NCBI GenBank assembly: GCA_949841595.1
Contig: CATKZB010000001.1
Coordinates: 170,418 to 234,417, forward strand
DNA: 64,000 nucleotides
Direction of reading: 5' to 3'
Source: an uncultured Christensenella sp.
Lineage (GTDB): Bacteria; Bacillota; Clostridia; Christensenellales; UBA1242
This document shows, piece after piece, positions 4,455 through 64,000 of the stretch. Position 1 is the first letter of the stretch. Each line of letters starts with the position of its first letter. The notes under the pieces were generated by a model that did not search any database, was not told the DNA's origin, and was given only the letters and a program-made list of their open reading frames with translations. A program made the position numbers and the translations under genes.

Positions 4455-4487
4455 TAATTTAATTTTAGAATAAACACACACTCAAAG

Positions 4488-5942
4488 TCAAGCAACTTCT
4501 TTCAATTTTTCTGATGCTTTGTTGAAATAAACATAAGAGGGTTTATCATCTGGGACATAATGCAAAACATATTCAAAAATCTCTTTGGCTTCCTGATATT
4601 TTTTCTCGTTGTAAGCACGCACCCCTTCTTCAAACTTGTTTTTTAGTTTTTTAAGCTTTTCACGTTTGTTTTTTTGATAATAATTCAAACTTTCAAAAAG
4701 AGAAATTTGAGATTCTCCGTCCAATGACAAAGCTCCTGTGTAACGATAATCAAAATCAAAATTTTGTGGAAGTTCGTTTAGAGCCTGTTTGGATATCAAC
4801 AATTTTGTGCCAATATAAAGATTGATTTCCACCATTTTTGACGCCAGATTGACAACATCTGAGATGATAGTTGGGCTTTTTCGTTCTTCATCGCCAACAA
4901 TTCCAAAAATAATTTCGCCTGTGTTTATGCTCAATCTTGCATCTATTGCAGGAAGATCTTTTTGGCTTTTGTTTTTAACATCTATTGCTCTCAAAATTGA
5001 ATGAGCACATTCAATTGCATCTTGAGGCTTAGAAAAAACTGCAAGCACACCATCTCCCATATATTTATCAATAAAGCCTCCAAATCTTCTTATAAGTGGT
5101 GCAACGACTTTAAGATAAGAGTTAATATAGTTGAAATTGGCTTCCAAACTTAAAGTACGAGAAATATTTGTGGCACTTTTTAAATCACAAAAAAGAGTTG
5201 TGGCATTCTTTTTAACTTGATTTCCAAGTTCCAATTCTGCAATATTACTTTTCCCTAAAAACTTGAAAAATTGTTTAGGAATAAACTTTTGAGCTTCCAA
5301 ATTTGTTTGTCTGATTTTGTTTTCTTTTTCTTTATAATTATAATTAATCTTGTTTAAAGAATTCTCAATTTCTTTAAATTGCTTGCCTCCACCGACTTTA
5401 AAATCATCAAATTTCATCCTTCCATCACCCAATTTTTCAGTAATTTTTTCCACTTTAGAAAGAGGACGACAAGAGAAAAGAATGATAACAAAAACCAAAA
5501 TCAAATAAATTAAAGTTGCAAGCCCTGCCCAGAGATAATTGTTGTAAGAATTTTCTTGTGTAACAATGTTGAGTGTTGCACGAATTGATTCAGCTGTGAC
5601 TCCTGTCATATTTTTAACAGCCGTAATATAAACCATGAATGCGCCATAGGCCAAAGTGAGTGGAGCTAAAGAAAAGAATATAACATTTGAAAGTCTTTGC
5701 GTTTTCAAAAATCTAAAAAACAATATACTGAAAAAAACATTGTTTAATATTTGAAATACAAGTGCCACCCAAGCAAGAGCAGTGAAACGCAGTTCAAAGC
5801 CATTCCCCGTCGGCACAATGGTTTGCAAAAGATATTTTGTCAAAAATATCCCTGGAATAAATGTGGCGATAGTAAGTCCTATCAAAATTTTTGTTGAAGT
5901 TCTCATACGAATATTTTGAGAAAAAATTTTCTTTGTATGCAA
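4488..5942 (-). CDS. Membrane-bound class III nucleotidyl (adenylate) cyclase with a TPR-like tail
   Basis: N-terminal polytopic membrane region. Catalytic core is TLFCDLKSATN...GGFIDKYMGDGVLAVF...RLSINTGEIIFGIVG...TIISDVVNLASKM. The K...D specificity pair suggests ATP as substrate. The annotated start is TTG; alternative ATG at 5906. Confidence 0.75.
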   Translation of the reverse strand: MHTKKIFSQNIRMRTSTKILIGLTIATFIPGIFLTKYLLQTIVPTGNGFELRFTALAWVALVFQILNNVFFSILFFRFLKTQRLSNVIFFSLAPLTLAYGAFMVYITAVKNMTGVTAESIRATLNIVTQENSYNNYLWAGLATLIYLILVFVIILFSCRPLSKVEKITEKLGDGRMKFDDFKVGGGKQFKEIENSLNKINYNYKEKENKIRQTNLEAQKFIPKQFFKFLGKSNIAELELGNQVKKNATTLFCDLKSATNISRTLSLEANFNYINSYLKVVAPLIRRFGGFIDKYMGDGVLAVFSKPQDAIECAHSILRAIDVKNKSQKDLPAIDARLSINTGEIIFGIVGDEERKSPTIISDVVNLASKMVEINLYIGTKLLISKQALNELPQNFDFDYRYTGALSLDGESQISLFESLNYYQKNKREKLKKLKNKFEEGVRAYNEKKYQEAKEIFEYVLHYVPDDKPSYVYFNKASEKLKEVA

Positions 5943-18374: not shown

Positions 18375-20648
18375 ATGAATTTTTACCAAATAATCACACA
18401 TAATAGGGAAATGAAGAAATTTGTCAAAATATGTCTAATTTCATTTGCATTGCTTGTCACTTTCACTTTTGTTTTCAGTGGAACATTTGTGACAATCAAT
18501 TATATCAAATATCAATCAATCCCACTTGATGCAGAAGCATTGAGCAATCCTTCACTTTCAATTGAGATTTACACCAAAGAGAACAAACCTATGAAGGAAG
18601 AAAATCAATTTAATGGCGATTTTTGCAAACTTGAAGACTTAAATTCATATACAAAACAAGCATTTTTGTCAATTGAGGACAAAGAGTTTTACAACCACAA
18701 TGGACTCAACAAAAAGCGTATTGCCAAAGCATTCCTCACAAACTTGAAAACAATGAGTTTGAAAGAAGGCGCATCAACTATAAGCCAACAACTTATCAAA
18801 AACACTCATCTTTCCAACGAAAAAACTTTTGAAAGAAAACTCAAAGAAATGGCACTTACAAGAAAACTTGAAAAAAACTACACAAAAGATGAGATTTTGG
18901 AATGCTATTTAAACGTGATTTTCTTCGGAAACAACTGTTATGGGCTTGAAAATGCTTCAAAATATTATTTCAACAAAAATGCAAAAGACTTAACTTTGTC
19001 TGAAAGTTGCACTTTGGCAGGAATAATCAAATCCCCAGCAAAATATTCCCCAATTTCAAATTATGAAAATTGTTTGAAAAGAAGAAATCTGATTTTAAGC
19101 GAAATGGAAAAAGATGGACATATTTCTGTCGATGAAAAAATAACGGCACAAAATCAGCCAATAAAGCTTGATATAACACCAAGAAGTGTCAACAAAATAA
19201 ACACTTACTCTCAAGCCAGCATTGATGAAGCGTCAAAGATTTTAGGACTTCCGGCTAAGCAATTGGCAATTGGTGGTTACAAAATTCACACCTATTGCAA
19301 TGAAGAAAAACAAGAAAATTTAAAACAGGCTCTTGAAAAAAATCAACTTGAAGACATTGACAGTGCAGGAATCGTCATTGATGCCGACACGTATGGAGTT
19401 TCAGCTTATTATGGAAACAGCAGTTATAAACTTATGGACATAAAACGTCAACCTGCTTCTTGCTTAAAACCAATCATGGTCTATGCTCCTGCATTAAATG
19501 AAGATGTGATTTCCCCTGCAACACAAATTTTGGACGAACCTATCAAAATAGGAAATTACGAACCCAGCAATGTAAACAAAAAATTTGTGGGCTATGTTTC
19601 GGCTACTGAAGCAGTCAAAAATTCAATGAACATACCAGCAATCAAAGTTCTAAGTTACATTGGCATTGACACTGGCAAACAATATGCTGAAAAAATGGGA
19701 ATATCTTTTGATGAAAAAGATGACAGTTATTCTCTTGCTTTGGGAGGAATGACCTATGGCGTCAATTTAAAAGATTTGACAAGTGCCTACACAACTTTTG
19801 CAAACAAAGGTGAATATGACAAAACAACTTTCATTCAATACATAACTGACAAAAACAATAAACTCGTCTACATTCACCGTCCACAACCTAGAATGGTGCT
19901 AAGAGAAGACAGCTCTTATCTTATGACAAACATTCTTCAAGAAGCTGCAAAAACAGGGACTGCACGAAAATTATCAGATATTTCAAACACAGAAATTGCT
20001 TCAAAAACCGGAACAGTCGGCAAAAAAGATGGAAACACAGACGCATATAACATCACCTACACCCCTGAAGAAGTTGTTGGCGTTTGGTATGGAGATTTAA
20101 CAAATCAACCTGCACCTATCACAAGTGGAAATCAACCAACAGAAGTTGTGAAAAGTTATATCTCATCTCAAGAATATGAAACAAAATCTTTTGACATACC
20201 TTCTTCTGTCACAACAGTAAAAATAGATGCTCTTGAAAAGGAAGAAAATCACAGACTTGTGCTTGCCAGTCCATATGCACCAGAAAGATATACAGAAACT
20301 TTCCTTTTCTCAAGATTTAACACTCCAACAGAAGTTTCACAAAACTTTGTTGAAAAACCACAAATTTCAGCCGAATGTAAAACAGAAAACAACCAAATTG
20401 TGATTTCTCTTCGCCCACAAAGACATCTGGAATATCAAATTTACAAAGATAACATCCCTTATCAAACAATAAAAGACAAACAAGAATATTTGACCATTCG
20501 TTTGCCTTTCAATGAAAAAGAAACCAACATCAAAATAACAGCAAACTATGCAAACTTAGCAAATTCGGATTTTGAAACTGAAAAAAACTTTACTTTGTCA
20601 AACACAAAAACAACAAACCAATCAAACAGTGACAAATGGTATATCTAA
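18375..20648 (+). CDS. Class A penicillin-binding protein (glycosyltransferase plus transpeptidase)
   Basis: GT51 motifs AFLSIEDKEFYNHNGLN and GASTISQQL. Transpeptidase motifs SCLK (SxxK) and KTGT. The likely true start is ATG 18411 (MKKFVKICLISF signal anchor). Confidence 0.88.
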   Translation: MNFYQIITHNREMKKFVKICLISFALLVTFTFVFSGTFVTINYIKYQSIPLDAEALSNPSLSIEIYTKENKPMKEENQFNGDFCKLEDLNSYTKQAFLSIEDKEFYNHNGLNKKRIAKAFLTNLKTMSLKEGASTISQQLIKNTHLSNEKTFERKLKEMALTRKLEKNYTKDEILECYLNVIFFGNNCYGLENASKYYFNKNAKDLTLSESCTLAGIIKSPAKYSPISNYENCLKRRNLILSEMEKDGHISVDEKITAQNQPIKLDITPRSVNKINTYSQASIDEASKILGLPAKQLAIGGYKIHTYCNEEKQENLKQALEKNQLEDIDSAGIVIDADTYGVSAYYGNSSYKLMDIKRQPASCLKPIMVYAPALNEDVISPATQILDEPIKIGNYEPSNVNKKFVGYVSATEAVKNSMNIPAIKVLSYIGIDTGKQYAEKMGISFDEKDDSYSLALGGMTYGVNLKDLTSAYTTFANKGEYDKTTFIQYITDKNNKLVYIHRPQPRMVLREDSSYLMTNILQEAAKTGTARKLSDISNTEIASKTGTVGKKDGNTDAYNITYTPEEVVGVWYGDLTNQPAPITSGNQPTEVVKSYISSQEYETKSFDIPSSVTTVKIDALEKEENHRLVLASPYAPERYTETFLFSRFNTPTEVSQNFVEKPQISAECKTENNQIVISLRPQRHLEYQIYKDNIPYQTIKDKQEYLTIRLPFNEKETNIKITANYANLANSDFETEKNFTLSNTKTTNQSNSDKWYI

Positions 20649-28756: not shown

Positions 28757-29482
28757 TTATTGCAAATTTTCTGACACTGTGCAAAGTTCAAAGCCCTGTT
28801 GCTTTAGCGTTTTAATAATTCTATCCAAAGCATTTTTAGTTGCCTCTGTCGGATGCATCAAAACAAAATCTCCACCCTTGCAATTTTTGATGGCACGTGA
28901 ATAAATTACTTCACTGTCCTTATCTCTCCAATCTATAGTATCTCTTCCTTCTGTCCACATAATTGTCTTATAGCCAAGTTCGTTTGCCATTTCCACTGTC
29001 TTTTTGTTGTAAGAGCCACTTGGTGGTGCAAACAAATTCATGTCTATGCCCAAAATTTGTTTGACTAATTTGTGTGTGTTGACAATTTCTTCATAATTCT
29101 TGTCAGCTGTTAGTTTTCCTTGCTCTTTGTGATAATACCCATGATTTCCAATCTCATGGCCAGCTTTATAAATTTTTTCAAGCATGTCACTTTCTTTAAC
29201 AGCCCAAGTTCCACCCACAAAAAAGGTGGTTTTGACATCATTTTCTTCCAAAATCTGAAGCATGTCGTCCAAAAATTCAGTTCCCCAGTAAACATTTATC
29301 ATAAGAGAAACTTTTTTTGAATTTTCATTCCCACTGTAATACACACCATACACCATTTTTGAAGATGTCACAAAATTTATGCCATACATCGCCACACAAG
29401 ACACTGCAATAAGCATAATCGCAATAATTAAATTTGTTAAAACCCTGCGACCATTAATGGTCCATATATATGTCTTTTTCAT
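28757..29482 (-). CDS. Polysaccharide deacetylase (NodB homology), PdaB-like
   Basis: N-terminal TM anchor, then SLMINVYWGTEFLDDMLQIL...TFFVGGTWA...GHEIGNHGYYH, resembling B. subtilis PdaB. Start trimmed to ATG 29482. Confidence 0.75.
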   Translation of the reverse strand: MKKTYIWTINGRRVLTNLIIAIMLIAVSCVAMYGINFVTSSKMVYGVYYSGNENSKKVSLMINVYWGTEFLDDMLQILEENDVKTTFFVGGTWAVKESDMLEKIYKAGHEIGNHGYYHKEQGKLTADKNYEEIVNTHKLVKQILGIDMNLFAPPSGSYNKKTVEMANELGYKTIMWTEGRDTIDWRDKDSEVIYSRAIKNCKGGDFVLMHPTEATKNALDRIIKTLKQQGFELCTVSENLQ

Positions 29483-29553
29483 AGTATAAACTATGCTGGA
29501 CAAGCAGAAAAATTACTTCAAAAAGAAAAAATCATGTTCAATTTACATGATTT

Positions 29554-40451: not shown

Positions 40452-40814
40452 CTATTTTTTGAATACTTTTATAAATTCCACAACTGCCAAACAACACAAG
40501 AATCCACCAAAAATCATTTTTAAAATTTTGGAAGGCAAAAATGACATCAAAACTGCTCCCAAAACTGAGAAAATAACTCCAAAAAAAATTATCCAAAAAA
40601 GGTTTTTTGTCACAATATATCCATTGCGATAATGGATGTAAATTGAAAATATTGCCATAACCAAAAAACTTAATAAATTAAGTCCTTGAGAAAGTTTTTG
40701 ATCAAAGCCCAAAAATATAGTCAAAATAGGGATAAGAAGCGTTCCACCTCCCATGCCTAAACCACCGAAAATTCCTGACAAAAAGCCAGCTAGCATATAA
40801 AAAAAATAAATCAT
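40452..40814 (-). CDS. Half-size TauE/SafE (TSUP) family membrane protein
   Basis: 120 aa with about 4 TM helices. LAGFLSGIFGGLGMGGGTLLIPIL is the family N-terminal motif. Start trimmed to ATG 40814, which has a GGGAG SD. Confidence 0.7.
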   Translation of the reverse strand: MIYFFYMLAGFLSGIFGGLGMGGGTLLIPILTIFLGFDQKLSQGLNLLSFLVMAIFSIYIHYRNGYIVTKNLFWIIFFGVIFSVLGAVLMSFLPSKILKMIFGGFLCCLAVVEFIKVFKK

Positions 40815-40884
40815 TGTTTTCTCCCGAAAATTTATTATTATTTTCTTCAAAAAACAAAAAATTATCTAAGAAAAAAATTTATTT

Positions 40885-41118
40885 TTAATATGCTTCATTC
40901 ATCAAAATTTTTAATAAAAATTCTATTAACAAAATTGAATGTTTTTTGACAATTTCCATATAAAAAATTTCCAAATCAAGAAACATATTTCGTTGATCTT
41001 TGCTTAAATTTTGAACAAATTGTTGTTCAAGATTTTCAAATTCTTGTGGCTGTTCAACTTTTTCTTTTGACTCACTTTCTTCAAAAATTTTGTAAAACAT
41101 TTCTGCAACAGTTTTCAC
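40885..41118 (-). CDS. Hypothetical 77-aa helical protein
   Basis: GTG start with AAGGAG 8 nt upstream. No motif recognised. Confidence 0.45.
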   Translation of the reverse strand: MKTVAEMFYKIFEESESKEKVEQPQEFENLEQQFVQNLSKDQRNMFLDLEIFYMEIVKKHSILLIEFLLKILMNEAY

Positions 41119-41161
41119 TTTTTAGTCTCCTTTTTTTCTTTTGTTTTATCGTTAAAAATAA

Positions 41162-41178
41162 AATTTTTTCGACTTAAT
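41162..41178. repeat. 17-bp perfect direct repeat, copy 1 (AATTTTTTCGACTTAAT)
   Basis: Identical to 41262..41278, exactly 100 bp away. Contains a near-0A box (TTCGACT). Confidence 0.85.
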
Positions 41179-41235
41179 TCATCAACACTTCGACAATTTT
41201 CGTCATTTTTTCTCAACAATCTTCAAACATCGTCT

Positions 41236-41263
41236 ATTCTACATAAAAATTTTATCAAGTCAA
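41236..41263 (-). promoter_or_regulatory. Sigma-A-type promoter candidate for the 77-aa gene / TauE-half operon
   Basis: Minus strand reads TTGACT (41263..41258)-16 nt-TAGAAT (41241..41236). It is flanked by TGNCGAA-like heptamers. Confidence 0.45.
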
Positions 41264-41278
41264 TTTTTTCGACTTAAT
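41262..41278. repeat. 17-bp perfect direct repeat, copy 2
   Basis: Identical to 41162..41178. Confidence 0.85.
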
Positions 41279-41335
41279 GTTACATGCATAAAACATTTTT
41301 CGACAAAAAAGGATACAAAACACTGTTTCTTATCT

Positions 41336-41740
41336 TTAAAACAGCAATCTTATGCCACCTGCCAGCATGACAAAAACAAAAATTATTCTGACAATTTTTT
41401 CGGGCAAAAATTTGAGTGCAAATGAGCCTACAATTCCACCCAAAAGCACACCTGTTCCCACAGTTAAAAAAGGAATTGTTTCAAGGTTTCCACTCAAAAG
41501 ATAAATGACTGCACTTATGAAGGAAATTGGAAGAATAACCACGATTGCTGTCGCATGAGAATATTTGTTGGGTAAATGTAGAACCTTTTCTAGTAAAGGA
41601 ACGCAAATCATTCCCCCTCCTCCACCAAAAAAACCATTGATAAATCCAATCAATGCACCACACAGTGCCAAAATAAATTTCTTCTTTGCAGGCAACTTGT
41701 TTTCTTTCTCTTTTTTCTTGGTTGTTTTCTTTGTTTTCAT
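41336..41740 (-). CDS. Half-size TauE/SafE (TSUP) family membrane protein
   Basis: 134 aa with a basic N-terminus, then GALIGFINGFFGGGGGMICVPLL and about 4 TM helices. Confidence 0.7.
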   Translation of the reverse strand: MKTKKTTKKKEKENKLPAKKKFILALCGALIGFINGFFGGGGGMICVPLLEKVLHLPNKYSHATAIVVILPISFISAVIYLLSGNLETIPFLTVGTGVLLGGIVGSFALKFLPEKIVRIIFVFVMLAGGIRLLF

Positions 41741-41834: not shown

Positions 41835-44800
41835 ATGAAAAAACTTAAAAAATTCAAAAGCAAAATATTGATGTTTATCTTTGCACTTGTGTTGCCTTTG
41901 TCTGCAACTTCAGTAGTTTATACAGTAAGTGAAGTTAAGAATGCAAATGCAGATAATGCTGCATCAAATTATTATTCTGGGTATATGAAAGAAGTTTCAC
42001 TTTCAAACAACAACTTCAATTCTGGTTCTTCAACCTATTCAATCAGCACATCTCTTTCTGGTTGGACTGGCCTTATGAAAGACAGAAAGACCACTGCTGG
42101 AATAATCAACACTGGAAACACCTTTCAAAACTACATGACAGGCACTTATCGCCTTTCAAACAACCCTCTTGCCAAAGCAAACGACAAGAATATTTTGATG
42201 ATAAATTCTAAGACTGCAGATTCAAATGATTATTCAACTGCAAGACAAGGATATAAATCAAATATAGTGAATTTGGAAGCAAATTCATTCTATTCTTTTC
42301 AAGTCTCTTTCAAGAGCGACACAAATTACAATTCTTACACAACTTATGTTCAACACGGAACAGTTGATGAAGATTTAAATTTGACAAAATCAGCTTTTGA
42401 AGAAAAGAAAGATGGAAAAATCAAAAGTTTTGGAGACCATATTTCATTCACATACAAAAGCAAAACTTATTATCTCCACAAAGAACTGATTGATGGTGCA
42501 AACACAACACAAAATCTCACAGATGTATCTTTCTTCTATGAAGATGATGAATATGTTGGTTTGATGTATAATGACTCTCCTGTTTATGTTGCCAAATCAG
42601 ATGTTGAAAAAGTGGAAGTCAATGAAGAAACACAATACAATATAGCTTCTGGCAAAAAAACATACACTTGCAACATTGAGTATGACACAGCAAATTCTAG
42701 ATATAATGTGAAAGCTGGAACAGCTTATTACACAACAAAAACAGAATATTCTTCACTAAACGACTATGTTTTTGGCTCAATTTATTTGTCAGGTCTTAAA
42801 GACAGTGAAGGAAATGCAGTAAAAGCAGATTATGTTCAAGTGACATCAAAAGAATGGGTAACTTTCTATTTCTTTGTTGCAACAGGAAACCAAGCCCAAA
42901 GTGTGACATTGGATCTTTGGCTTGGAACAAACCAAACTGGCCATGACAGCAGTGGCGTTGTGTTCTTTGACGATTGCCATGTTTATCAATACAGCGAAAA
43001 CACTTTCTGGAAAACATACAAATCTTATTTCGGAAAAAATTATACTCAAGAAATAACAACTTCAAGTGGCACAACAACTCAAGTTTTTGATTGCACAAAC
43101 TTGGTTGATCTTAGAAATGCAACAAATATTGAATACCCAACCCACAACTTTGACTTTGAAGAAGGAATCTTCAATAATGATGGTTCTGCTCTTAAAAACT
43201 GGACAAAGAGTGGAAATGGAAATGCTCAAATTTTTGACTCAAGAAATCCTCAAGCTTTTAAAAGCGCAACAGGTGGATATGATTTTGTAGGCTCAAATCT
43301 CTCATGTGAAGTAAACATCAATGGAGAAGCAATATCAATCACCCCAAACAACTATGTCTTAGGTTTATGGTCAAAAAATGGATATGTTAAAGTAAAATCA
43401 AATGCTGTTAGCATAGATGCAAATCAAGTATGCAAAATCAAAGCAACCTACAAAATTTCTGAAATAACCAGTGGAAATGTATATATGTTTGTAGAAGAAA
43501 ATGACAACATTCTGACTTCTTACAACCTTACAAAAGATCAATATACACTTGCAGAAGAAGCTTCAAGCACTGCAGTAACAACAAATGGATCAAGCAGTTT
43601 CTCAAACAGCTATGGAACAATAGAATTCTATGTTAAAGGTGGAAATCTCTATAATTCTTCCGTTAACATCTCACTTGGACTTGGCAAAAGCAATGAAACT
43701 GCAACTGGTTGTGTTGTGTTTGACGATATTACTATAGAAAAAACAGCATCATCAGATTTTGATAATGCATCAAACAAACTTGAACTTGACACATACACAT
43801 CATCCCTTTCAATTGCAAATGGAAACTTTAACAAAGTAACTTCAGAACAAGACAGCACCTATCCTCTTGCCCCTCAAAACTGGAAGATTGAAAAAGGAAC
43901 TGGCTTCACCTTTGGTGGCGTTGTCAACACAGAAGCCAAAGAATATGCAAAATATGTTGAAAAATACAATCAACTAAAAGCTGATAATGTGGATGATTTG
44001 AAAAACAACTATTATTGGGCAAGCTATGCAAATCCAAAAAACAGCTACAACTCTACTTCCGAACCTGACAATGTTATGATGCTTGCAAACATAACAAGTG
44101 CTTGGCAAAAATTGACTTCTGACAATTTCACACTTTCTGCAAACAGCACAAACAAGCTTACATTTAAATATAAAACTTACAACTCAAACAATGGAATTAT
44201 TGCGACCTTGTATAACAAAGATGGCGTAAAACTTTTTGAATCACAAAAACTAAATTCAAATGGACAGTGGAATGATTATGAAATTTATCTCAAATCATTC
44301 TCTGGAGCAAGTGAAGTTTATTTAACAATAGATTACGGCACTGAAACAGACAAAGCTGAAGGTTTTGCTTATTTCGACAATTTTGATATAGAATCAATTG
44401 ATGGAAGCGTCTTTGAAAACAAATCTAGCACTTCTGAAGGAAATGGAGACGCCTTTGCTGTTGTAGATATGTCAGATTTCTATCTAAAATTGCCTACAAA
44501 CAACATCACTAATGACTTAACAACTTCTAATACTCCTGCATTTACTGGAGCTTACGGCAGTGGAAACTCAAGCATTGGTGGTATTATCAAAAGTGAAGGT
44601 CTTGGAGAAATCTTTAAGTTGGATGAAGAAAACAAAAACGTTTTCTACATCACAAATCATGGTGTTGGCTCTTACACACTCCAATCAAATTTCAACTTGG
44701 ATTTGGAAGCAAACAAATACTATGAATTGTCATTCAAACTTAAAACAAATTTCAACTACACAAATGCTGATGTGAGTTTGGATAAAGATAAAACATACAA

Positions 44801-45680
44801 TTATGGTGCAACCTTTGGTTTGACAGGTTTTGATTTTATGAAACAACTTGTAGCAAACGAAGAAACTTATCAGACTTACACAATGTATTTCAACCCTAGT
44901 GAAGCTGCTTCTGCAAAACTCTATTTAGCACTTGTAAGTGACAGCATTGAAACTACAGGTTCTATGGCAATCTATGACATTGCATTTGCTGAAGTTGAAG
45001 AATCAGTTTACACAAGTGCTGTTGAAGCTTGTGCTGCAACAGATTATGACATCAACAAAGACAAAATCATGATTTCAAAAGCTGAAGGCAAAACTGATGA
45101 CGACAACGACGACGATAACAATGGTGACAACACAGACACCACCCCAAGCACAAATGGAGATCTCAATTGGTCAATTTTGATTGCATCAATAATCACTGGC
45201 GCTGCAATTGTAATAGCATTAATTGGCTGGGCAATGAGCAAAGTTAAAATCAAAAAAATAGAAAGAAAGAGAAAAGAATCTTATGACAGAAAAGAAAGCT
45301 TGCATGTTGATGCCATAAAGATCAAAGCAAGAAAACAAAGAGATTCTGACATCGAAGCTGTAAAAACTGACATTGAAAAGTTCCAAAAAGAACTTGACAA
45401 AATGGAAAAAGAACACAAACAAAAAGTGCTTACTCTCAGAGAAAAAGATAAAGGCACAGTTTCAAAAGAAACAGACAGAGAATTTAAGCAATTTGCAAAG
45501 AAGAGAACTGTTATTGCAGAAAAGATTGACTCTTTAAACAAACAAATTGAAGAAATAAATTCACCTGAATATCTTTTGAATCTTGAAAGAAAAATTTTCG
45601 CTCAAGATGAAATGAAACAAAAAGAACTTTCAAAGGTTTCAAAAAAATCTAAAGATGAAAAAGATTCTTCTAAAAAATAA
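41835..45680 (+). CDS. Giant type-I membrane surface protein with CBM_4_9-like jelly-roll repeats and a basic coiled-coil cytoplasmic tail
   Basis: Signal peptide (MKKLKKFKSKILMFIFALVLPLSA). At least four modules open with NxNF(N/E)xG...W and close with hydrophobic-FDD/FDN motifs (VVFFDDCHVYQY, CVVFDDITIEK, FAYFDNFDIESI, MAIYDIAFAEV). These are followed by a D/N-rich linker, the TM WSILIASIITGAAIVIALIGWAM, and a ~150-aa K/E-rich tail. Confidence 0.8.
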   Translation: MKKLKKFKSKILMFIFALVLPLSATSVVYTVSEVKNANADNAASNYYSGYMKEVSLSNNNFNSGSSTYSISTSLSGWTGLMKDRKTTAGIINTGNTFQNYMTGTYRLSNNPLAKANDKNILMINSKTADSNDYSTARQGYKSNIVNLEANSFYSFQVSFKSDTNYNSYTTYVQHGTVDEDLNLTKSAFEEKKDGKIKSFGDHISFTYKSKTYYLHKELIDGANTTQNLTDVSFFYEDDEYVGLMYNDSPVYVAKSDVEKVEVNEETQYNIASGKKTYTCNIEYDTANSRYNVKAGTAYYTTKTEYSSLNDYVFGSIYLSGLKDSEGNAVKADYVQVTSKEWVTFYFFVATGNQAQSVTLDLWLGTNQTGHDSSGVVFFDDCHVYQYSENTFWKTYKSYFGKNYTQEITTSSGTTTQVFDCTNLVDLRNATNIEYPTHNFDFEEGIFNNDGSALKNWTKSGNGNAQIFDSRNPQAFKSATGGYDFVGSNLSCEVNINGEAISITPNNYVLGLWSKNGYVKVKSNAVSIDANQVCKIKATYKISEITSGNVYMFVEENDNILTSYNLTKDQYTLAEEASSTAVTTNGSSSFSNSYGTIEFYVKGGNLYNSSVNISLGLGKSNETATGCVVFDDITIEKTASSDFDNASNKLELDTYTSSLSIANGNFNKVTSEQDSTYPLAPQNWKIEKGTGFTFGGVVNTEAKEYAKYVEKYNQLKADNVDDLKNNYYWASYANPKNSYNSTSEPDNVMMLANITSAWQKLTSDNFTLSANSTNKLTFKYKTYNSNNGIIATLYNKDGVKLFESQKLNSNGQWNDYEIYLKSFSGASEVYLTIDYGTETDKAEGFAYFDNFDIESIDGSVFENKSSTSEGNGDAFAVVDMSDFYLKLPTNNITNDLTTSNTPAFTGAYGSGNSSIGGIIKSEGLGEIFKLDEENKNVFYITNHGVGSYTLQSNFNLDLEANKYYELSFKLKTNFNYTNADVSLDKDKTYNYGATFGLTGFDFMKQLVANEETYQTYTMYFNPSEAASAKLYLALVSDSIETTGSMAIYDIAFAEVEESVYTSAVEACAATDYDINKDKIMISKAEGKTDDDNDDDNNGDNTDTTPSTNGDLNWSILIASIITGAAIVIALIGWAMSKVKIKKIERKRKESYDRKESLHVDAIKIKARKQRDSDIEAVKTDIEKFQKELDKMEKEHKQKVLTLREKDKGTVSKETDREFKQFAKKRTVIAEKIDSLNKQIEEINSPEYLLNLERKIFAQDEMKQKELSKVSKKSKDEKDSSKK

Positions 45681-55164: not shown

Positions 55165-55929
55165 CTAATTTTTGTGTTGAACGCCATTTCTGTCTATTGT
55201 ATAGTCACTTTCATAAACCAAATCTGAAATTGCAGTAACTTTGTAACCTGCCACTTTAAGTCTGTTTAAAGTCAGTCTTAAAGCATCCAAAATATGATCA
55301 GAATTGTTGTGCATCAAAATTATTGAACCATTTTTAACTCTCGACATCACCCTGTTTGTTATCTCAGAAGCAGAAAGCCCTTTCCAGTCAAGACTGTCCA
55401 CGTCCCATTGAATTGTTTTCAAGTTCAAACTTTCAGCAGTCTCAAGAAGTGCGTTGTTGTAAGAACCAAATGGTGCTCTAAACAATTTGACATCTTTGTT
55501 TGTCACAGCCTTGATTTTTGAAATAGATGTTTCAAGTTCGCTTTTCATTGTTGAAGCTGAAAGTTTAACCATGTCAGGATGAGTGTTTGAATGAGTGCCA
55601 ATCTCAAATCCAGCATCATCAATCGCTTTGGTCATTTCGGTGTAGTCATCCACCCAAAAGCCAACAAGAAAGAATGTCGCCCCCACATCATATTCCTTCA
55701 AGATGTCCAAAATACCCTGTGTTTTGTCAGCACCCCAAGCAGCATCAAAAGAGATGGCCACTTGTTTTTCCTCTGTTTCAACATTGTAAATTGGAACTTT
55801 TCTGGTCGAATATCCAAAATAGACTTGTGCAGAAGTCGAACCATTAACAGAAATTGACAACAACACAGCCACAAGCACAACAGCAACAAAAATTTTGATT
55901 GTTCTTGATTTGATAACGCAGAAATGCAT
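55165..55929 (-). CDS. Polysaccharide deacetylase (NodB homology), PdaB/YlxY-like
   Basis: Signal anchor, then ISFDAAWGADKTQGILDIL...ATFFLVGFWV...GFEIGTHSNTHPDM. Start trimmed to ATG 55929, which has a GAGG SD. Confidence 0.8.
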   Translation of the reverse strand: MHFCVIKSRTIKIFVAVVLVAVLLSISVNGSTSAQVYFGYSTRKVPIYNVETEEKQVAISFDAAWGADKTQGILDILKEYDVGATFFLVGFWVDDYTEMTKAIDDAGFEIGTHSNTHPDMVKLSASTMKSELETSISKIKAVTNKDVKLFRAPFGSYNNALLETAESLNLKTIQWDVDSLDWKGLSASEITNRVMSRVKNGSIILMHNNSDHILDALRLTLNRLKVAGYKVTAISDLVYESDYTIDRNGVQHKN

Positions 55930-56095
55930 ACAAACCTCGCTTTTTATTTTAAAGTTTATTTGCATTTTCAACAATGACAATTTTGACTGAAATAATCTAT
56001 TATTGTTTTAAGTTGTCGAAAATACATGAATTTGAAATTGCTTTCTAAAATAATGTACTTTTGATAACAAAAAAATAGAACATCAATTTGGACAA

Positions 56096-56129: not shown

Positions 56130-59100
56130 TTAGCACCAATAGAAAACTTTTAATGTCCATCTGCTATTTACCTGTAGCCATATATCTTTATCTAAGTTGT
56201 TTATGTTTGCTCCATAATAATTATTATCAGAATTGCTCGAAGCTCGATAATAGCAATTTTCAGATGTTACATAATCACTATCACCACATGCCAAATCATG
56301 TGTAAAATCGGGATTAGCTGTTATCTGACATTCAGCATAACATTGGCTAAATTCGGTAGATGACAAAACTTCTCCTACAATACCTGCAACTTCACTTAAA
56401 TCTTCACAAATCATGTTTGTTTTTGAAGACACAGCAAAGAATTTACAGTCTTTTGCAAGTCCCACTATACCACCAAAACGTGATCTATATTTTTGACTGT
56501 TTTTAATAGACTTACCTTGCAATTCAACAACATTTTCTGCATAATCAAAACTTCCGTTGTCTTCATCATTATAAATATTATGATAAGTTATTTTATTCGT
56601 TTGCAATGTGCAATTGAAGGTGTGAACATAAGAGAATTTAGTATTTTCTGCCTCTGCAACAACTGCCCCCACATTTCCAAATCCAGTGAACTTACAGTCT
56701 TTTATTGTCAAGTTTTTGATAGTTGCGCCGTTGGTATAACCAAACAAACCAATGTCAGAGATTTTGTCTCCATCATTGTCTCCACCAATAAATTTAAGAT
56801 TTGAAATCATATGGTGATTTCCGTCATAAACACCTTTGAATGGGTGAGCTTCGCTTCCGATTGGATTGAAGATTTTGCCAAACATATTAATATCTGCAGT
56901 TTGCCTAATTAAACAACTTTCAAAAGTTTCGCCACCATTAACCATTTGACTTAACTTTATCAAATCATCAGCATTGTTAATTTCATAAACACCATTCACA
57001 GCAGTTAAATTTCCAGAAACGTTTGTATAATCTTTTAAATATTTAGCAGTTATTGTTACATCTGAAAGTGAGCCATTATTAGCAAATTTGTATTCTTTGT
57101 TTAATGTCAGCAACTTATCGCCATCACTACCACACACGTAAAGACCTATGTATCTATATCCCTCTGGTACATTTTCTGATTCTTTTACAGTTACTGTAGC
57201 AAAATAGTATGGTTTATCGTAATTTTTATAATCACACTCAAATGTTGGCTTATATCCACCAACACTCGACTCCAAGTTTACTGAATAATTACTTACACTA
57301 AAGAAATAATATAGATCAATTGTGTTATTCCAATCTGAAATATTATTTCCTTTAATTTCTGATACATATTCGGTCAATAGATCTCCCGACCAAACTATAG
57401 ATTCAATATTTTGTCCATTTTGTTTTCTCCAATCATTAAGATAGCCTTTAAAGTCTGCACTTAAATCAGTAAATTCAAAATATCCTTGATTTGCTTTTCT
57501 TTCAACTTTAATATCTCTATTATCAACTGTAAATTTAATAGCAGTTGGAGTTACAGTTCCACCTAAATGGTTTTCATCAGATTTAAAGTCATATTTGCTA
57601 TCAAATTTATCAACATATGTATAGATATTGACAGTATATTCAATAGCTTCTCTTGAAATCTGCACAGTAAATTCATTGACATCTATTAATCTAAATTCTA
57701 ACAATTTATCAAAAGGATCAACTTGTTTATCGTCTCCTATTGAAATAATCCATCTAAAATCAGGATTTGTTGAATCTCCAAAATTTACACACTCAGGTTG
57801 TAATCCAACCTTTAACTCAGAATCACCATCCGACAAAGTCACATTTTCTTCATTGGATTTTAAATTTGTAATTTTAAAACTATATTTATATCCCAATTCA
57901 AATTTGTTTTCAAAGTCGACAGTTTTGTGCATATCATTTGTAACTAGAAAATCAGTCCATGAATCAAAACCACTCCCAGTACCATCCCAAAAAGAAACGT
58001 GTATTTTATAATTTACTTTCTTAAACAAGAAAACCAATTGACCAGCTTCACCATCTTGATATTCATATGAAAAAGTATCATAAAAATAAACTCCTAAAGG
58101 TTCTTCTCTAGGTTTAAAACCATGACGAAGTTTAGCTTCCGTTGCACTATCTTCATATGCAATACCTGCAAATTGATAACCAAATTTTGGCGTAACTTTA
58201 TATTTAATATTATCTTTATAATATATTTCATCGATTGAACAATCATTTATTTCCACTGTTCCAAAATCAGAACTAGAACCGTCAATCAACTTCGTTTTAA
58301 TATCTAAAGAAATTGATTTGTTTTCTAATGTAAACCTTACTACAAATCCATTAACTTGTTTTGTGAAACTAAGATACAAACTATCAGCTTGTGGCACGAC
58401 ACCACCAAAAGATTGAAAGCTAGTGTTATATGATTTACTAATTTCTGCAGAAATATATTTAAGCTTTTCTGTGTTGTAAGTTAGATTTAACAGCTGTTTG
58501 TATCTCAGTTCAATTCTATAGTTAACTCCTCTTAAAAAGTAAATATTTTTAGAGTCAAGGTTTTCAAATTTAGATTTCCATTCTATCTTACCTTTATTAT
58601 CACAAAATCTAACAGATGTCTTTATATTAAATTTTTCTTTTTCTTCTTCAGATAATGTTATGGTTCTATTTGGAAGTTTAACTTGGATAGTATTTATATC
58701 AGCGTCTGAAACGGCAGAACTAGGGACTAACAAACTATTGCCACCTTCTGTCTGTGAAATTTCTTTTGAAACTGCCGAGCTATTATCAAAATAAAAATTT
58801 ACGATTGGAGACATAAACCATGTCTTTTCAGTGCCTTTATGGGTTTCTGGATATGTGTCACCATCTTCGTCAGTATATTCACTTTCATACATCTTATGAG
58901 TGCCAATTTCATTTGACCATGTCAAAACTCCTCTATAAGAAGAATTGTTATTGTAGTTCCATCGCCCCAAATACCAATTGTTATAGTTGTTTAAAAAACT
59001 ATACTCAATTAAATCACCTCTCCATGTTTTATAGCCAAAATGTTGAAAAGAAACCGATACAGATTTTGAATCGTGATTTAAACATTTGTCAATTGGTTTG

Positions 59101-60578
59101 TTATAATCTGTGAAATAATTATTTTTCAAAACATTATTAACAAGGTCACTTGAATCTGTTGTTATTCTGCCAATTATTCTTCCATAAAGGGAATTTGTTT
59201 CTCCTTGCATTTTTCCAGCATTAATGCAATTTGCAACAAGATAGTGAGAATAGTATTCTGTCCAAGAACCTATACCTAAAACTCCCATATGCCATTCAGA
59301 GCCACCAATTTTACCTACAATGCCACCAACATTATTTCCTTGCACATTGATTGTGGCATAATTTAAACATCTGAATATAAGACTATGGTTTGTAACTGAT
59401 CCAACAATTCCTCCGACATTTTCAATTGATGCATTTGAATTTGTTATATTTCCGTAATTTACACAATCATTGATAATTAAAGGGTTGCTATCATTAGTTG
59501 CAGCTGTGCCTATTATTCCTCCTATTGAAGATGTACTATTTAAATTTTTATATTGGACTATTTCAATATCCCCAAAATTAGAACATCCAGTGATAGTTTT
59601 GGTTTTATAATCCATTGCATTTGAAACTAACCCAGCCACATAAAAATGGTTAACTCTCGATATTTTTATATCTGAATAATTATGTGAATTCGAAATGTTT
59701 AAACTGTTTCTTGAAAGACCAATCAACCCACCAAAATAAGCAGTGTCCCAAATTTCAAATCTTACATCGCTTCCAGTGCTATAAAACCTAAATTCATCAC
59801 CATAATACGCGCATGAATATACTGTACAGTCAGATGCAATTCCTAAAATTCCACCAGCATATATGTAATCTAAATTCCAATTGTCCCAAGCTGCTGCACG
59901 AATAATCACATAAGAATAGCAATAACGCATTGTTGTAGACTTTGCATTCCCCACAAAACTTCCAATATGCAATTCATCTGTTCCGTTACCTTCATTAGAA
60001 TATTTAAAAAACTCATAACATCCATCTATTATAAGTGAGTCAATCAAAGCATTTTCTGTTTTTCCAAACAAACCATATGCATTATTATAACGATTTTGGG
60101 AAAGATCTGTTGCTGTTTTATGCATGAAAATCCCAGAAATAGTATGGCTATTTCCATAAAAGCTGCCAGTAAAAGAAAAATCATTTCGCCCTGAGCGACT
60201 TCCTATTGGAGTCCAATAATGAGAAGATAAATCTATATCTCTTTGCAAATAAACACTAGCATTAGAATAATATGCATCTCCAATCTTGCTTCCGTTATTA
60301 ACACACCTTGCAAATTCTGACAATTCTTCAGCAGTCACAATATCGACTCTCATATACGATCCAGAAACACTAATTTGATTTCCCACTTCCAAATTGGCAC
60401 CATAATCACTCCAGTCTCCACTTGGAGTGGCTTTGACTTCTGTTTCTTGTTGATCTTGATCTGAACCTTGATTTTGAAAAATATCTGATGAATTGTCAAC
60501 AAAAAACGCTGTGCCACAAACAAACGAAAGTGACAAGAAAAAAGCCATGATAATTGAAAAAATTATCTTTTTCTTCAT
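56130..60578 (-). CDS. Giant secreted GLUG-motif beta-helix protein (~1482 aa)
   Basis: Signal peptide MKKKIIFSIIMAFFLSLSFVCGTA. Many GLUG-type repeats (IGGIIGTA, VGGIVGSV, VGGIVGKI, FGGLIGLS, AGGILGIA, FGGIVGLA, VAGIVGEV) lie in N- and C-terminal modules, each preceded by ...PIG...F.G.f.GN.H.ISG/N... The central ~700 aa match no family. Start trimmed to ATG 60578. Confidence 0.8.
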   Translation of the reverse strand: MKKKIIFSIIMAFFLSLSFVCGTAFFVDNSSDIFQNQGSDQDQQETEVKATPSGDWSDYGANLEVGNQISVSGSYMRVDIVTAEELSEFARCVNNGSKIGDAYYSNASVYLQRDIDLSSHYWTPIGSRSGRNDFSFTGSFYGNSHTISGIFMHKTATDLSQNRYNNAYGLFGKTENALIDSLIIDGCYEFFKYSNEGNGTDELHIGSFVGNAKSTTMRYCYSYVIIRAAAWDNWNLDYIYAGGILGIASDCTVYSCAYYGDEFRFYSTGSDVRFEIWDTAYFGGLIGLSRNSLNISNSHNYSDIKISRVNHFYVAGLVSNAMDYKTKTITGCSNFGDIEIVQYKNLNSTSSIGGIIGTAATNDSNPLIINDCVNYGNITNSNASIENVGGIVGSVTNHSLIFRCLNYATINVQGNNVGGIVGKIGGSEWHMGVLGIGSWTEYYSHYLVANCINAGKMQGETNSLYGRIIGRITTDSSDLVNNVLKNNYFTDYNKPIDKCLNHDSKSVSVSFQHFGYKTWRGDLIEYSFLNNYNNWYLGRWNYNNNSSYRGVLTWSNEIGTHKMYESEYTDEDGDTYPETHKGTEKTWFMSPIVNFYFDNSSAVSKEISQTEGGNSLLVPSSAVSDADINTIQVKLPNRTITLSEEEKEKFNIKTSVRFCDNKGKIEWKSKFENLDSKNIYFLRGVNYRIELRYKQLLNLTYNTEKLKYISAEISKSYNTSFQSFGGVVPQADSLYLSFTKQVNGFVVRFTLENKSISLDIKTKLIDGSSSDFGTVEINDCSIDEIYYKDNIKYKVTPKFGYQFAGIAYEDSATEAKLRHGFKPREEPLGVYFYDTFSYEYQDGEAGQLVFLFKKVNYKIHVSFWDGTGSGFDSWTDFLVTNDMHKTVDFENKFELGYKYSFKITNLKSNEENVTLSDGDSELKVGLQPECVNFGDSTNPDFRWIISIGDDKQVDPFDKLLEFRLIDVNEFTVQISREAIEYTVNIYTYVDKFDSKYDFKSDENHLGGTVTPTAIKFTVDNRDIKVERKANQGYFEFTDLSADFKGYLNDWRKQNGQNIESIVWSGDLLTEYVSEIKGNNISDWNNTIDLYYFFSVSNYSVNLESSVGGYKPTFECDYKNYDKPYYFATVTVKESENVPEGYRYIGLYVCGSDGDKLLTLNKEYKFANNGSLSDVTITAKYLKDYTNVSGNLTAVNGVYEINNADDLIKLSQMVNGGETFESCLIRQTADINMFGKIFNPIGSEAHPFKGVYDGNHHMISNLKFIGGDNDGDKISDIGLFGYTNGATIKNLTIKDCKFTGFGNVGAVVAEAENTKFSYVHTFNCTLQTNKITYHNIYNDEDNGSFDYAENVVELQGKSIKNSQKYRSRFGGIVGLAKDCKFFAVSSKTNMICEDLSEVAGIVGEVLSSTEFSQCYAECQITANPDFTHDLACGDSDYVTSENCYYRASSNSDNNYYGANINNLDKDIWLQVNSRWTLKVFYWC

Positions 60579-60584
60579 GTTTTT

Positions 60585-60612
60585 ATTATATACAAATTTA
60601 GACAAAAATCAA
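60585..60612 (-). promoter_or_regulatory. Promoter candidate abutting the GLUG-gene ATG (leaderless candidate)
   Basis: Minus strand reads TTGATT-16 nt-TATAAT-aaaaac-ATG. No SD is present. Confidence 0.4.
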
Positions 60613-60737: not shown

Positions 60738-63458
60738 TTAGTCTTCAAAAGCATAAATTCCCAAGAATTTTTTCTTAACAACTTCTTCTCCAACACTTAA
60801 TCTGTCGCTTGAAACTTTAAGTTTTTTCTTTTCCAAAATTGCAAATTTAAGACCGTGGTCAACAACAACTTTGTCCCCTGTTCCTGCATAAGAAACAAAC
60901 TTGCCAGAATTTTCAAAATTGATAAACTTAACACCTTTTCTGTTTCTTGCACAAATTGGAATCTGCATTGAACTCAGTCGTTTTGCAAAACCATTGTTGG
61001 TCACAATCAAATAGTCATCACTGACATTCTGTCCTGCAAACACAACTGCATCTTTTTCTTCAATATTGATGCCTTTCACTCCACCAGAAATTCTGCCTTG
61101 AACTGCAACTTCACTTTTTTCAAAATTGACACAATTTCCTGATTTGCTCAACATAACAAAAGTTTTTCCCTTGATTTCATGCTCCACATTGATAACCTTG
61201 TCATCATCAGAAAGTTTCATAACTTGATAATAACTTTTTGAAACTACCAAATCTTTTTCAGTGCTTCTCTTGACCATACCATTTTGTGTGAAGAAAACAA
61301 TTTCTCCATCTCCTTCCACTTTCAAAACTGCAACTGGAGTTTCCATAATATCAGCTGTTTTATCGATTTGTTTAAGTGAAATTCCTTTATCTCTCCACTT
61401 ACATTCAGGCAGTTTGTCCACCACTGATTTCAAACAATTTCCCTTGTCAGTGAAAATCAACACAGTGTCAGTTGGTTTGACATGAACCAAAGTTGTGTGA
61501 ATGTCAAACAAGGTCGAACCATCTGAAATGGTCTTTTGAGATTTTGAATAATTCTTCAAACTAACTTTTTTCAAAGTTTTTCCAGCTGAAAGAGCAATCA
61601 AATAATCTTTTGTATCTTCCACTTCTTCAATCTTTGCCAAAACAATTTCTTCGCCTTTTGCTTCTATCGAGCGTCTTGGCGTGTTAAACTTTTTCTTAAT
61701 TTCCAAAATTTCTTTCTTGACTACTTCAAGTTGAAGCTTTTTAGAACCCAAAATTGCTTCCAGTTCTTTAATCCTAGCTTTCAAACCTGCCAATTCTTCG
61801 GTCAGTTTTGTTACTTCCAAATTCACAAGTCTTGCAAGTCTCATATCCAAGATTGCCTGTGCCTGTTTTTCTGACAAGTTGAATTTTGCACGTAATTTTT
61901 GTCTTGCTTCTGAAACATTGGAAGAAGTTTTGATGATTTTGATAACTGCATCTATGTTTTTGATGGCAATCAGCAAGCCTTCAACAATATGTGCCCGATC
62001 TTTCGCCACATTTAAATCAAATTTTGTTCTTCTGACCACAACATCTCTTTGGAATGCCGTATAATAAGAAATGATTTCCATCAAATTTAAAAGTTTTGGC
62101 TTTCCCCCAGCAATTGCAACCATATTGATTGCATAAGATGTTTGCAAATTTGTTGATTGAAACAAATAGCCCAAAATCTTCTTTGCATTTGCTTCTTTTT
62201 TAAGACGAATGACAGCTCTCATTCCATTCCTGTCACTCTCATCTCTGATTTCACTAATCACAGAAAGTTTATCTTTATTCTTCTCTTTAAGTTCAGCAAT
62301 TTTTTGCAAAAGTTGAGCTTTGTTAACCTGATAAGGAAGTTCTGTGATAACCAAACTTTGCTTATCGCCATTTTGTTCAATCCCCACCTTTGCACGGATG
62401 ATAATCTTTCCTTTTCCTGTTTCATATGCACTTTTAATGCCGTCACCCAAAATAAGTTCTCCACCCGTTGGAAAATCAGGACCTTTTATGATTTTCATCA
62501 TGCTTTCAAGCTTGATATTTGGATTTTCAATATAAGCAACCACACCGTCAATAACTTCTCCCAAGTTATGTGGTGGAATGTTTGTTGCCACACCAACTGC
62601 AATTCCCGAAGCACCATTCACAAGCAAGTTTGGAAATCTTCCCGGCAAAACATCTGGCTCTTTCAAAGTGTCATCAAAGTTAAGTCCCCAACGAACAGTA
62701 TCTTTTTCCAAATCTCGCAAAATTTCCATTGCAAGAGGAGTCATTCTAGCTTCAGTGTAACGCATTGCTGCAGCACTGTCACCGTCAATCGAACCAAAAT
62801 TTCCATGACCGTCAACTAACGGTGCTCTCAGCACAAAGTCTTGAGACATACGCACCATGGCATCGTAAACAGAACTATCGCCATGAGGGTGATATTTACC
62901 CATACAATCACCAACGATACGTGCCGATTTTCTGTAAGGTTTGTCTGGTGTAAGTCCAAGTTCCAACATCGAATACAAAATTCTTCTTTGAACAGGTTTA
63001 AGTCCATCTTCCACTCTTGGCAAAGCTCTGTCCATAACAACATGTTCTGTGTATGGAATCATGGAATCATGCAAGACCTCTTCAAGTGGCTTAAACAAAA
63101 TTCCACTGCCATCAAAAGTCCCACCACCATTTCCATTTGAACCATTTCCAGAATTATCTTGTTCTTCTGACACTTCTTCCAGAATATCCTCGGCTTTAAC
63201 TTCAGTTTTTAACGAACTTTCAACACTTTTTCTTGGTTCTGCATTTTTGGAAGCATTTTTAACAGAACTAATCTCATTTTTTGTTGCCATGCTCCAAATG
63301 TCAAGTTGTCCTTCCACTGCAGACTCCACAACCTTCTTTTCTTCTTCCTTTTGTGGAACAAGAAGTTCGTCATAACACATCTGTCCTTCAATAGGTTCGA
63401 TAATATTAGGTTTAAATTCATCGTTGTTTTTCTTGTTGTTATTCACATTAACCCCCAA
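60738..63458 (-). CDS. parC: Type IIA topoisomerase subunit A, ParC-like (no GyrA box seen), with a ~115-aa low-complexity N-terminal extension
   Basis: [20 protein letters not shown]..., ...[18 protein letters not shown]..., and active-site region [10 protein letters not shown]. The C-terminal beta-pinwheel has no QxRGGKG motif. Confidence 0.85.
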
Positions 63459-63479
63459 ATATGTCTAAACAAATTAATC

Positions 63480-64000
63480 TTAATTTTCTATGTTTTTATA
63501 ATCTCTCATAAATGTATCTTCACGGTCAAAGTTTGCATGCTCGCTGATGTATGCCTTTCTTTCTTCAATGTCATCTCCCATAAGAGTCGTTATCATCTTT
63601 TCAGCTTGAGCTGCATCTTCAATCGTCACTTGAACAAGAGTTCTGTTTGCTGGATCCATAGTTGTTTCCCAAAGTTGTTCAGGATTCATCTCTCCAAGAC
63701 CTTTATATCTTTGAATCATATATCCTTTTCCTGCTGCAGCCACGGCTTCAGAAAGTTCAGCATCTGAATAAACATATTTTTCATAATCTTTCTTATAAAC
63801 TTTGTAGAGTGGTGGAAGTCCAATGAAAACATGTCCATCATTGATAAGTGGTTTCATATAGCGATAAAAGAAAGTCAAAAGAATTGCACGGATATGAGCA
63901 CCATCTTGGTCGGCATCCGACAAAATGATAACTTTGTTATATCTAAGTGACGACAAATCAAAATCTTCGCCAAATCCTGTGTCAAGAGCAGAAATAATCG
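63480..64000 (-). CDS. parE: Type IIA topoisomerase subunit B (ParE/GyrB), C-terminal part; N-terminus lies right of the window
   Basis: Toprim/tail motifs ILSDADQDGAHIRAILLTFFYRYM, LPPLYK and RYKGLGEMNPEQLWETTMDP. The reading frame stays open to the window edge. Confidence 0.85.
   Translation of the reverse strand, partial: IISALDTGFGEDFDLSSLRYNKVIILSDADQDGAHIRAILLTFFYRYMKPLINDGHVFIGLPPLYKVYKKDYEKYVYSDAELSEAVAAAGKGYMIQRYKGLGEMNPEQLWETTMDPANRTLVQVTIEDAAQAEKMITTLMGDDIEERKAYISEHANFDREDTFMRDYKNIEN

Follow-up and report, generated by a model that had tools for sequence, protein, structure and literature searches.

A compact group of heptamers resembling Spo0A binding sites (0A boxes), all in one orientation, lies in front of a gene for a small protein of 77 amino acids in the DNA analysed here, a stretch of 64,000 nucleotides which is called the window throughout. 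The clustering of the boxes exceeds chance, and their likeness to Spo0A sites is real and not a product of chance. The group could be a putative operator array of the Spo0A type, which would probably repress a promoter situated on a recent insertion between two half-genes; from the sequence comparisons available, a probability of about 0.4 may be given to this reading. The features on which the argument is built are the following:

41336..41740, minus strand: TauE/TSUP half-gene 1, 134 aa, matching the C-terminal half of the Pfam model
40815..41335, minus strand: species-specific insertion of 521 bp, from the stop of half-gene 1 to the ATG of half-gene 2
41322..41345, minus strand: weak terminator-like hairpin (GCUGUUUU...AAACAGU), overlapping the stop of half-gene 1 and followed by a T-rich run at 41320..41306
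41299..41305, minus strand: box 1, TGTCGAA (TTTTTTGTCGAAAAATG), at about -77..-71 with respect to the inferred transcription start
41262..41278: upstream copy of a 17-bp repeat, minus-strand letters ATTAAGTCGAAAAAATT
41236..41263, minus strand: sigma-70-type promoter-like site TTGACT-16-TAGAAT, 10 of 12 consensus matches
41229..41235, minus strand: degenerate box AGACGAT, directly 3' of the -10 element and over the inferred start
41168..41205, minus strand: array TGACGAA-aat-TGTCGAA-gtgt-TGATGAA-tta-AGTCGAA, with box starts at 41205, 41195, 41184 and 41174, at about +25..+62 in the leader
41162..41178: downstream copy of the 17-bp repeat, holding the last box of the array
41148..41154, minus strand: degenerate box TAACGAT
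40885..41118, minus strand: gene for the 77-aa protein, GTG start at 41118, ribosome-binding site AAGGAG 8 nt upstream
40452..40814, minus strand: TauE/TSUP half-gene 2, 120 aa, ATG at 40814, matching the N-terminal half of the Pfam model

A preliminary description of this DNA had pointed out five heptamers, a 17-bp repeat with a spacing of 100 bp and a TTGACT-16-TAGAAT promoter between the repeat copies, and all of these were located by direct reading of the sequence. On the minus strand TGTCGAA is found at 41305..41299 and 41195..41189, TGACGAA at 41205..41199, and AGTCGAA at 41274..41268 and 41174..41168; the repeat (AATTTTTTCGACTTAAT on the plus strand) is perfect and occupies 41162-41178 and 41262-41278, exactly 100 bp apart, and the promoter extends from 41263 to 41236. 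Three of the five boxes match TGNCGAA at 7/7 positions and two at 6/7, and the bases G2, C4 and G5 are intact in all five. The upstream copy of the repeat holds box 2 (AGTCGAA, 41274..41268), and its final two T residues are the first two bases of the -35 element.

Five copies of WGWCGAA stand on one strand within 150 bp, whereas the maximum in 300 first-order Markov simulations was three; with the strict form TGNCGAA the same local test gave three copies versus a maximum of two in 300 such simulations. This bears out the earlier judgement that the cluster was unlikely by chance. The 217-bp spacer in front of the 77-aa gene holds five of the window's eight intergenic matches. When the local 641 bp were simulated, an exact direct repeat of at least 17 bp was produced in 2 of 300 runs. 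The CpG dinucleotides of the spacer are concentrated in the same motif: all seven lie in RWCGAW on the minus strand, including those of the degenerate boxes AGACGAT (41235..41229) and TAACGAT (41154..41148), and the ratio of observed to expected CpG is 2.6 in the spacer versus 0.45 in the window. A degenerate tandem duplication of 100 bp was considered and ruled out as the origin of the pattern, because the alignment of the two 100-bp units, once the 17-mer is set aside, is not superior to that of shuffled sequences (67 of 500 shuffles scored as well or better).

It had also been held that isolated copies elsewhere are without meaning, and the counts agree with this. WGWCGAA occurs 32 times in the window (17.6 expected) and TGNCGAA 35 times (18 expected), an excess of about twofold, and 28 of the 35 copies of TGNCGAA are on the minus strand, presumably because this is the main coding strand; isolated boxes consequently carry little weight. 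The perfect form TGTCGAA is common, with eight copies in the window, and single boxes therefore mean little. In the genome of C. difficile 630, 102 copies of TGTCGAA were counted (PMC3485338).

A further box, TGATGAA (6/7 matches, 41184..41178, minus strand), joins three of the previously noted boxes into a head-to-tail array, whose box starts follow each other at distances of 10, 11 and 10 bp. This is the sole chain of four phased boxes in the window; of 200 simulated windows, 12 contained a chain of at least three. Two pairs with a 3-bp spacer, a tandem geometry of the dimer type, are contained in it, TGACGAA-aat-TGTCGAA and TGATGAA-tta-AGTCGAA, the second of which depends on TGATGAA. Over its 28 box positions the array agrees with TGNCGAA at 26, compared with 18 for the CtsR repeat RGTCAAA. 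Neither a second box cluster nor a second phased array of this kind was found in the 64-kb window and about 176 kb of fetched loci, of which about half are contigs of strains of the same species; hence the sequence scanned gives no sign of a regulon. In the window there is just one further chain of three phased boxes with 6/7 matches to TGNCGAA, namely TGAAGAA, TGTCAAA and TGTCTAA at the start of a PBP1-type gene (18412-18438, plus strand); it is probably due to chance, since the CG core is absent from all three boxes.

The boxes sit at a recognisable promoter, from which transcription would start near 41229, with a leader of about 110 nt; relative to this position the boxes would be placed at about -74, -43, +1 and +25..+62. 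Box 2 lies upstream of the -35 element at a distance of 4 bp, and three of the five boxes first noted lie downstream of the -10 element, the same layout as had been described before. The -35 region is itself an 80% copy of a 20-nt reference copy which contains the downstream 17-mer. The hairpin at 41322..41345 has a calculated stability of -15.9 kcal/mol (z = -1.5) and was not reported by a terminator scan; the evidence for it is weak.

All of these elements (boxes, promoter, 77-aa gene, and the hairpin except for its 5' arm) are contained in 521 bp between the TauE/TSUP half-genes. The TauE/TSUP transporter is encoded by two half-size genes, the one matching the C-terminal part first, in every related locus examined. 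The related loci share both half-genes together with their neighbours: upstream, a protein of about 1,300 aa without any domain, and downstream, genes for ferredoxin, Ppx/GppA, a protease-like protein and MreB. The gap between the half-genes measures 12 bp (loci L013/L014), 17 bp (L010, Candidatus Caccovivens sp.), 64 bp (L023), 170 bp (L024) and 197 bp (L011/L012) in the relatives, and its sequence is unrelated to that of the window; homology of the insert to the 197-bp gap of L011 was likewise not found. Since these gaps are shorter and of unrelated sequence, the region 41335..40815 is regarded as a species-specific insertion. The 521-bp version and the same arrangement were present in 8/8 further contigs of the same species, from metagenomes and the assembled genome GCA_948647925.1. 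As a terminator is absent between the 77-aa gene and half-gene 2, the two are probably transcribed together.

The junction is hypervariable: its length ranges between 12 and 521 bp, and its sequence differs from species to species without any relationship (window, L010, L011, L013/14, L023, L024). On comparison of these loci it is evidently a place where filler DNA builds up. In L024 (3391-3560) it includes three tandem copies of a unit of about 36 bp (GCTGTTTGAAAATTTTGCAGRGCRA...), and in L011 (about 4472-4490) it holds a near-perfect palindrome of 19 bp, TTATGACAAATTGTCATAA. A mobile element was rejected as the source of the insertion: a second copy of the insert was not found in the window, phage and plasmid matches were lacking for protein as well as DNA, and a 23-nt direct repeat with copies 522 bp apart is 78% identical, AT-rich and situated off the insertion boundaries. 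An inverted repeat of 19 nt (40870-40888 and 41152-41170; 95% complementary, AT-only) brackets the 77-aa reading frame, and may be due to chance, since an equally good one was obtained in 25 of 300 simulations.

Close relatives of the 77-aa protein were not found outside its species. Nine full-length remote homologues with 27-41% identity were recovered by an exhaustive profile-free search, and with their alignment AlphaFold2 predicted three helices (pLDDT 88.7). No match was obtained in Pfam, NCBIfam, a profile search of PDB or fold searches of PDB and BFVD. The protein is a solo member of an uncharacterised family of small three-helix proteins, the gene contexts of which are:

L015/16: family gene divergent beside an XRE gene
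L017-19/L022: family gene divergent beside an XRE gene, adjoining prfA-tsaD
L020: family gene divergent beside an XRE gene
L026: family gene divergent beside an XRE gene, adjoining prfA-tsaD
L025: family gene solo
Window: family gene solo

In four of these six contexts, counting the window, the family gene is divergent from a gene for an XRE-type helix-turn-helix protein of 67-87 aa. Palindromic operators at the paired loci overlap a strong, near-consensus promoter (TTGACA/TATAAT), and for this reason tight repression looks like the rule in the family. The window offers neither an XRE homologue nor, in the spacer, an XRE remnant; thus the usual control of the family is missing here, and the region of direct repeats stands in its place. 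An XRE-controlled module, an XRE remnant in the spacer and an XRE partner elsewhere in the window were all considered and dismissed, a divergent XRE gene being absent and the spacer repeats being direct instead of inverted. The insertion and this background of XRE control in the family had escaped the preliminary description.

The XRE/three-helix modules (L017 4690-5228, L026 2291-2834, L015 816-1335, L020 114-635) encode three-helix proteins of 73-78 aa, and their palindromic operators, which are lineage-specific, lie over a consensus promoter; examples are the GTAACA-N-TGTTAC repeats of L017 and L026 and the sequence TTTCCCTATATAGGGAAA of L015. Such a module adjoins prfA-tsaD in two UBA1242-like genomes. 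The solo gene of L025 has a perfect 12-bp palindrome, GTTTTCGAAAAC, between the -10 element and the ribosome-binding site (2960-2995), and an element TTCGAATTAAG in the loop of an upstream terminator-like hairpin resembles the core of the 17-mer of the window. A scan of a genome collection with the family alignment yielded as its sole locus the already known one of Caccovivens.

The source organism is an uncultured gut bacterium, and its closest named relative is Candidatus Caccovivens (Clostridia, family UBA1242), which corresponds to GTDB genus UBA11517 in family UBA1242, order Christensenellales (PMC8035907). Genomes of this family are mostly smaller than 1 Mb, and the occurrence of sporulation genes in it was called "quite unexpected", spo0A not being named in that report (PMC12306168). 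In the 64-kb window spo0A was not found with a B. subtilis query sequence, nor was any clear sporulation gene. Two polysaccharide deacetylases (55165-55980 and 28757-29503) have the sporulation-type PdaB/YlxY models as their best matches, with scores below the curated cut-offs, and a single perfect TGTCGAA is situated in the intergenic DNA upstream of the former (56014-56020, plus strand).

Among strains, an alignment of 251 bp contained two variable sites, both inside the features described above: the first box of the array reads TAACGAA (G2A) in 4/8 strain contigs, and the upstream 17-mer reads AATAAG in 4/8, which reduces the repeat to 16/17 in those contigs. Strain diversity amounts to 2/217 in the spacer and 5/521 in the insert, similar to neighbouring coding DNA; these values speak neither for nor against constraint, and do not indicate decay. 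An orthologous promoter in another species was not encountered among the related loci examined, so that, with an insertion confined to one species, the boxes have no phylogenetic footprint.

The core of the 0A box is TGTCGAA, in which G2, C4 and G5 are contacted by Spo0A in a base-specific manner; replacing any one of these bases weakens the binding of C. difficile Spo0A about tenfold (PMC3485338). Pairs of boxes in head-to-tail arrangement with a 3-bp spacer are protected by Spo0A, and in phage phi29 four consecutive boxes are present at the origins, and boxes also at early promoters (PMC2731898). The proposal of the preliminary description that Spo0A acts on this region is consistent with the contact bases kept in 5/5 boxes, with the A/T-rich flanks, as known from described 0A boxes, with the 3-bp head-to-tail pairs, with the layout at the promoter and with a host from a family of Clostridia for which sporulation genes are reported (PMC12306168). 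Against it weigh the missing spo0A and clear sporulation genes in the 64-kb window, the lack of an orthologous region in other species by which conservation could be judged, the G2A change of one exact box in half of the eight strain contigs, and the lack of another cluster in the window and the fetched loci.

In abrB of B. subtilis, 0A boxes are found downstream of the transcription start. The promoters repressed by Spo0A (abrB; early promoters and origins of phages phi29 and Nf) resemble the region described here in the TGTCGAA/TGNCGAA core, the A/T-rich flanks, the 3-bp head-to-tail spacing with runs of up to four boxes (PMC3485338, PMC2731898), and the location of boxes over or downstream of a sigma-A promoter. 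They differ from it in that here the target gene, situated in a species-specific insertion, codes for a 77-aa protein which is uncharacterised, an orthologous promoter was not seen elsewhere, and one box is polymorphic at a contact base.

Promoters of the spoIIG, spoIIE and spoIIA type have upstream 0A sites. Boxes centred near -43, by the -35 element, and near -74 are a likeness to these promoters, which are activated by Spo0A; however, they have a poor -35 element or abnormal spacing and depend on Spo0A, whereas the promoter here is close to the consensus in both hexamers (TTGACT and TAGAAT) and in its 16-bp spacer, and has most of its boxes downstream. Since the promoter is near-consensus, the upstream boxes need no activating role. 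With the divergent switch modules of XRE (Cro/CI-like) type there is the likeness that the 77-aa family is paired in this way in 4/6 contexts, but the copy in the window is without an XRE partner and has direct repeats, not palindromes.

Taken as a Spo0A-type operator array, the region could work as follows. The promoter would have arrived with, or evolved on, the 521-bp species-specific insertion, and the cluster would be its operator region; it would drive the captured small-protein gene and, by read-through, probably TauE half-gene 2, ferredoxin and Ppx/GppA. The boxes would most likely be bound by a protein of the response-regulator type recognising head-to-tail GWCGAA repeats, and among such proteins Spo0A~P is the best candidate. 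The phased array of four boxes (about +25..+62) could then accommodate two dimers, which would block transcription, in analogy to promoters where Spo0A is bound downstream of the start, and the boxes at about -43 and -74 together with the degenerate box over the start may add cooperative occupancy. The net effect would be that the promoter is repressed when cells enter stationary phase or begin to sporulate. An extended version, according to which the insertion, in an uncultured symbiont of family UBA1242, put part of a conserved operon (TauE half-gene 2, ferredoxin and Ppx/GppA, perhaps also the genes for the protease, MreB and MinD which follow) under a Spo0A-type array and at the same time captured a small protein which is normally repressed by an XRE protein, is unlikely.

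The repeats might also be without function, as filler in a tolerant TauE junction, produced by local duplication or slippage, with a fortuitous 0A likeness of a motif of only 7 bp. The junction of the relatives varies in length (12, 17, 64, 170, 197 and, in the window, 521 bp) with unrelated sequences, that of L024 has tandem repeats of its own, and the -35 region appears as a partial copy of the downstream repeat; both strain polymorphisms fall inside the claimed features, and a second cluster was not seen in the sequence examined. On the other hand, no single longer unit has been copied to give the five to seven boxes, the 100-bp units being not significantly alike outside the 17-mer; all seven CpGs of the spacer are in one oriented motif in a CpG-poor genome; a phasing of 10, 11 and 10 bp over four boxes is not expected from slippage; and the position of the array is precisely that between a promoter and a ribosome-binding site, both of good quality. 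On balance an origin of the pattern as mere filler seems doubtful, though by no means negligible.

CtsR operators are heptad repeats of the form RGTCAAA-NAN-RGTCAAA, and their targets are clp and heat-shock genes. Such a repressor, another response regulator, or a regulator from the source of the insertion could conceivably bind the direct repeats in place of Spo0A. A phasing of 10-11 bp in direct repeats is typical of many response regulators and of CtsR; the geometry of 7+3 in head-to-tail orientation and the 6/7 agreement of AGTCGAA with AGTCAAA are likenesses to the CtsR operator; spo0A was not found in the window with the query mentioned; and the leader of the solo gene in L025 has a different TCGAA-containing element, the palindrome given above. 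However, the fit to CtsR (18/28) is inferior to that of the 0A box (26/28), clp and heat-shock targets are not present here, and there is no regulator gene in or beside the insertion. The operators of CodY, LexA/Cheo, cre, Rex and CtsR, compared by eye as consensus motifs, all fit the boxes less well than the 0A box, and a binder other than Spo0A is held to be improbable.

An element acting at the level of RNA, in which the GUCGAA/GACGAA repeats (four boxes of one orientation within the inferred 110-nt leader) would be recognised by an RNA-binding protein or adopt a regulatory fold, is very improbable, as the leader folds no better than shuffled sequences (z = -0.7), the region has no Rfam match, and two boxes, being located upstream of the promoter, would be absent from its transcript. 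A riboswitch or other RNA leader was rejected on the first two of these grounds.

If Spo0A binds to the array, a new gene would have been recently recruited to a sporulation or transition-state regulon in a reduced genome, which would be a clean natural case of a regulon enlarged through an insertion, in a genome that is minimal and spore-former-like; the event would moreover be datable, since sister species are without the insertion. The situation would be analogous to that of phi29, which silences itself via 0A boxes, and a first functional handle on the uncharacterised small-protein family would be provided. If Spo0A does not bind, the case should be taken as a caution that a convincing cluster of a 7-bp motif can be filler in a hypervariable junction. 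Either way, this is a putative cluster of binding sites of a well-known kind and does not imply a new mechanism.

Several other genes of the window may be mentioned. Two very large proteins, of 1,281 aa (41835-45680, plus strand) and 1,491 aa (56130-60605, minus strand), are devoid of Pfam domains; the former is kept in size and position in all related loci, and both may be surface or host-interaction proteins of a lineage with reduced genomes. The gene gyrA and the end of gyrB are located at the right edge (60738-63956, minus strand) and the GC skew is negative throughout, from which it follows that the window is probably on one replichore, a few kb from the origin. A protein of 484 aa (4488-5942, minus strand) contains an adenylate/guanylate cyclase catalytic domain, which is unusual for so reduced a genome.
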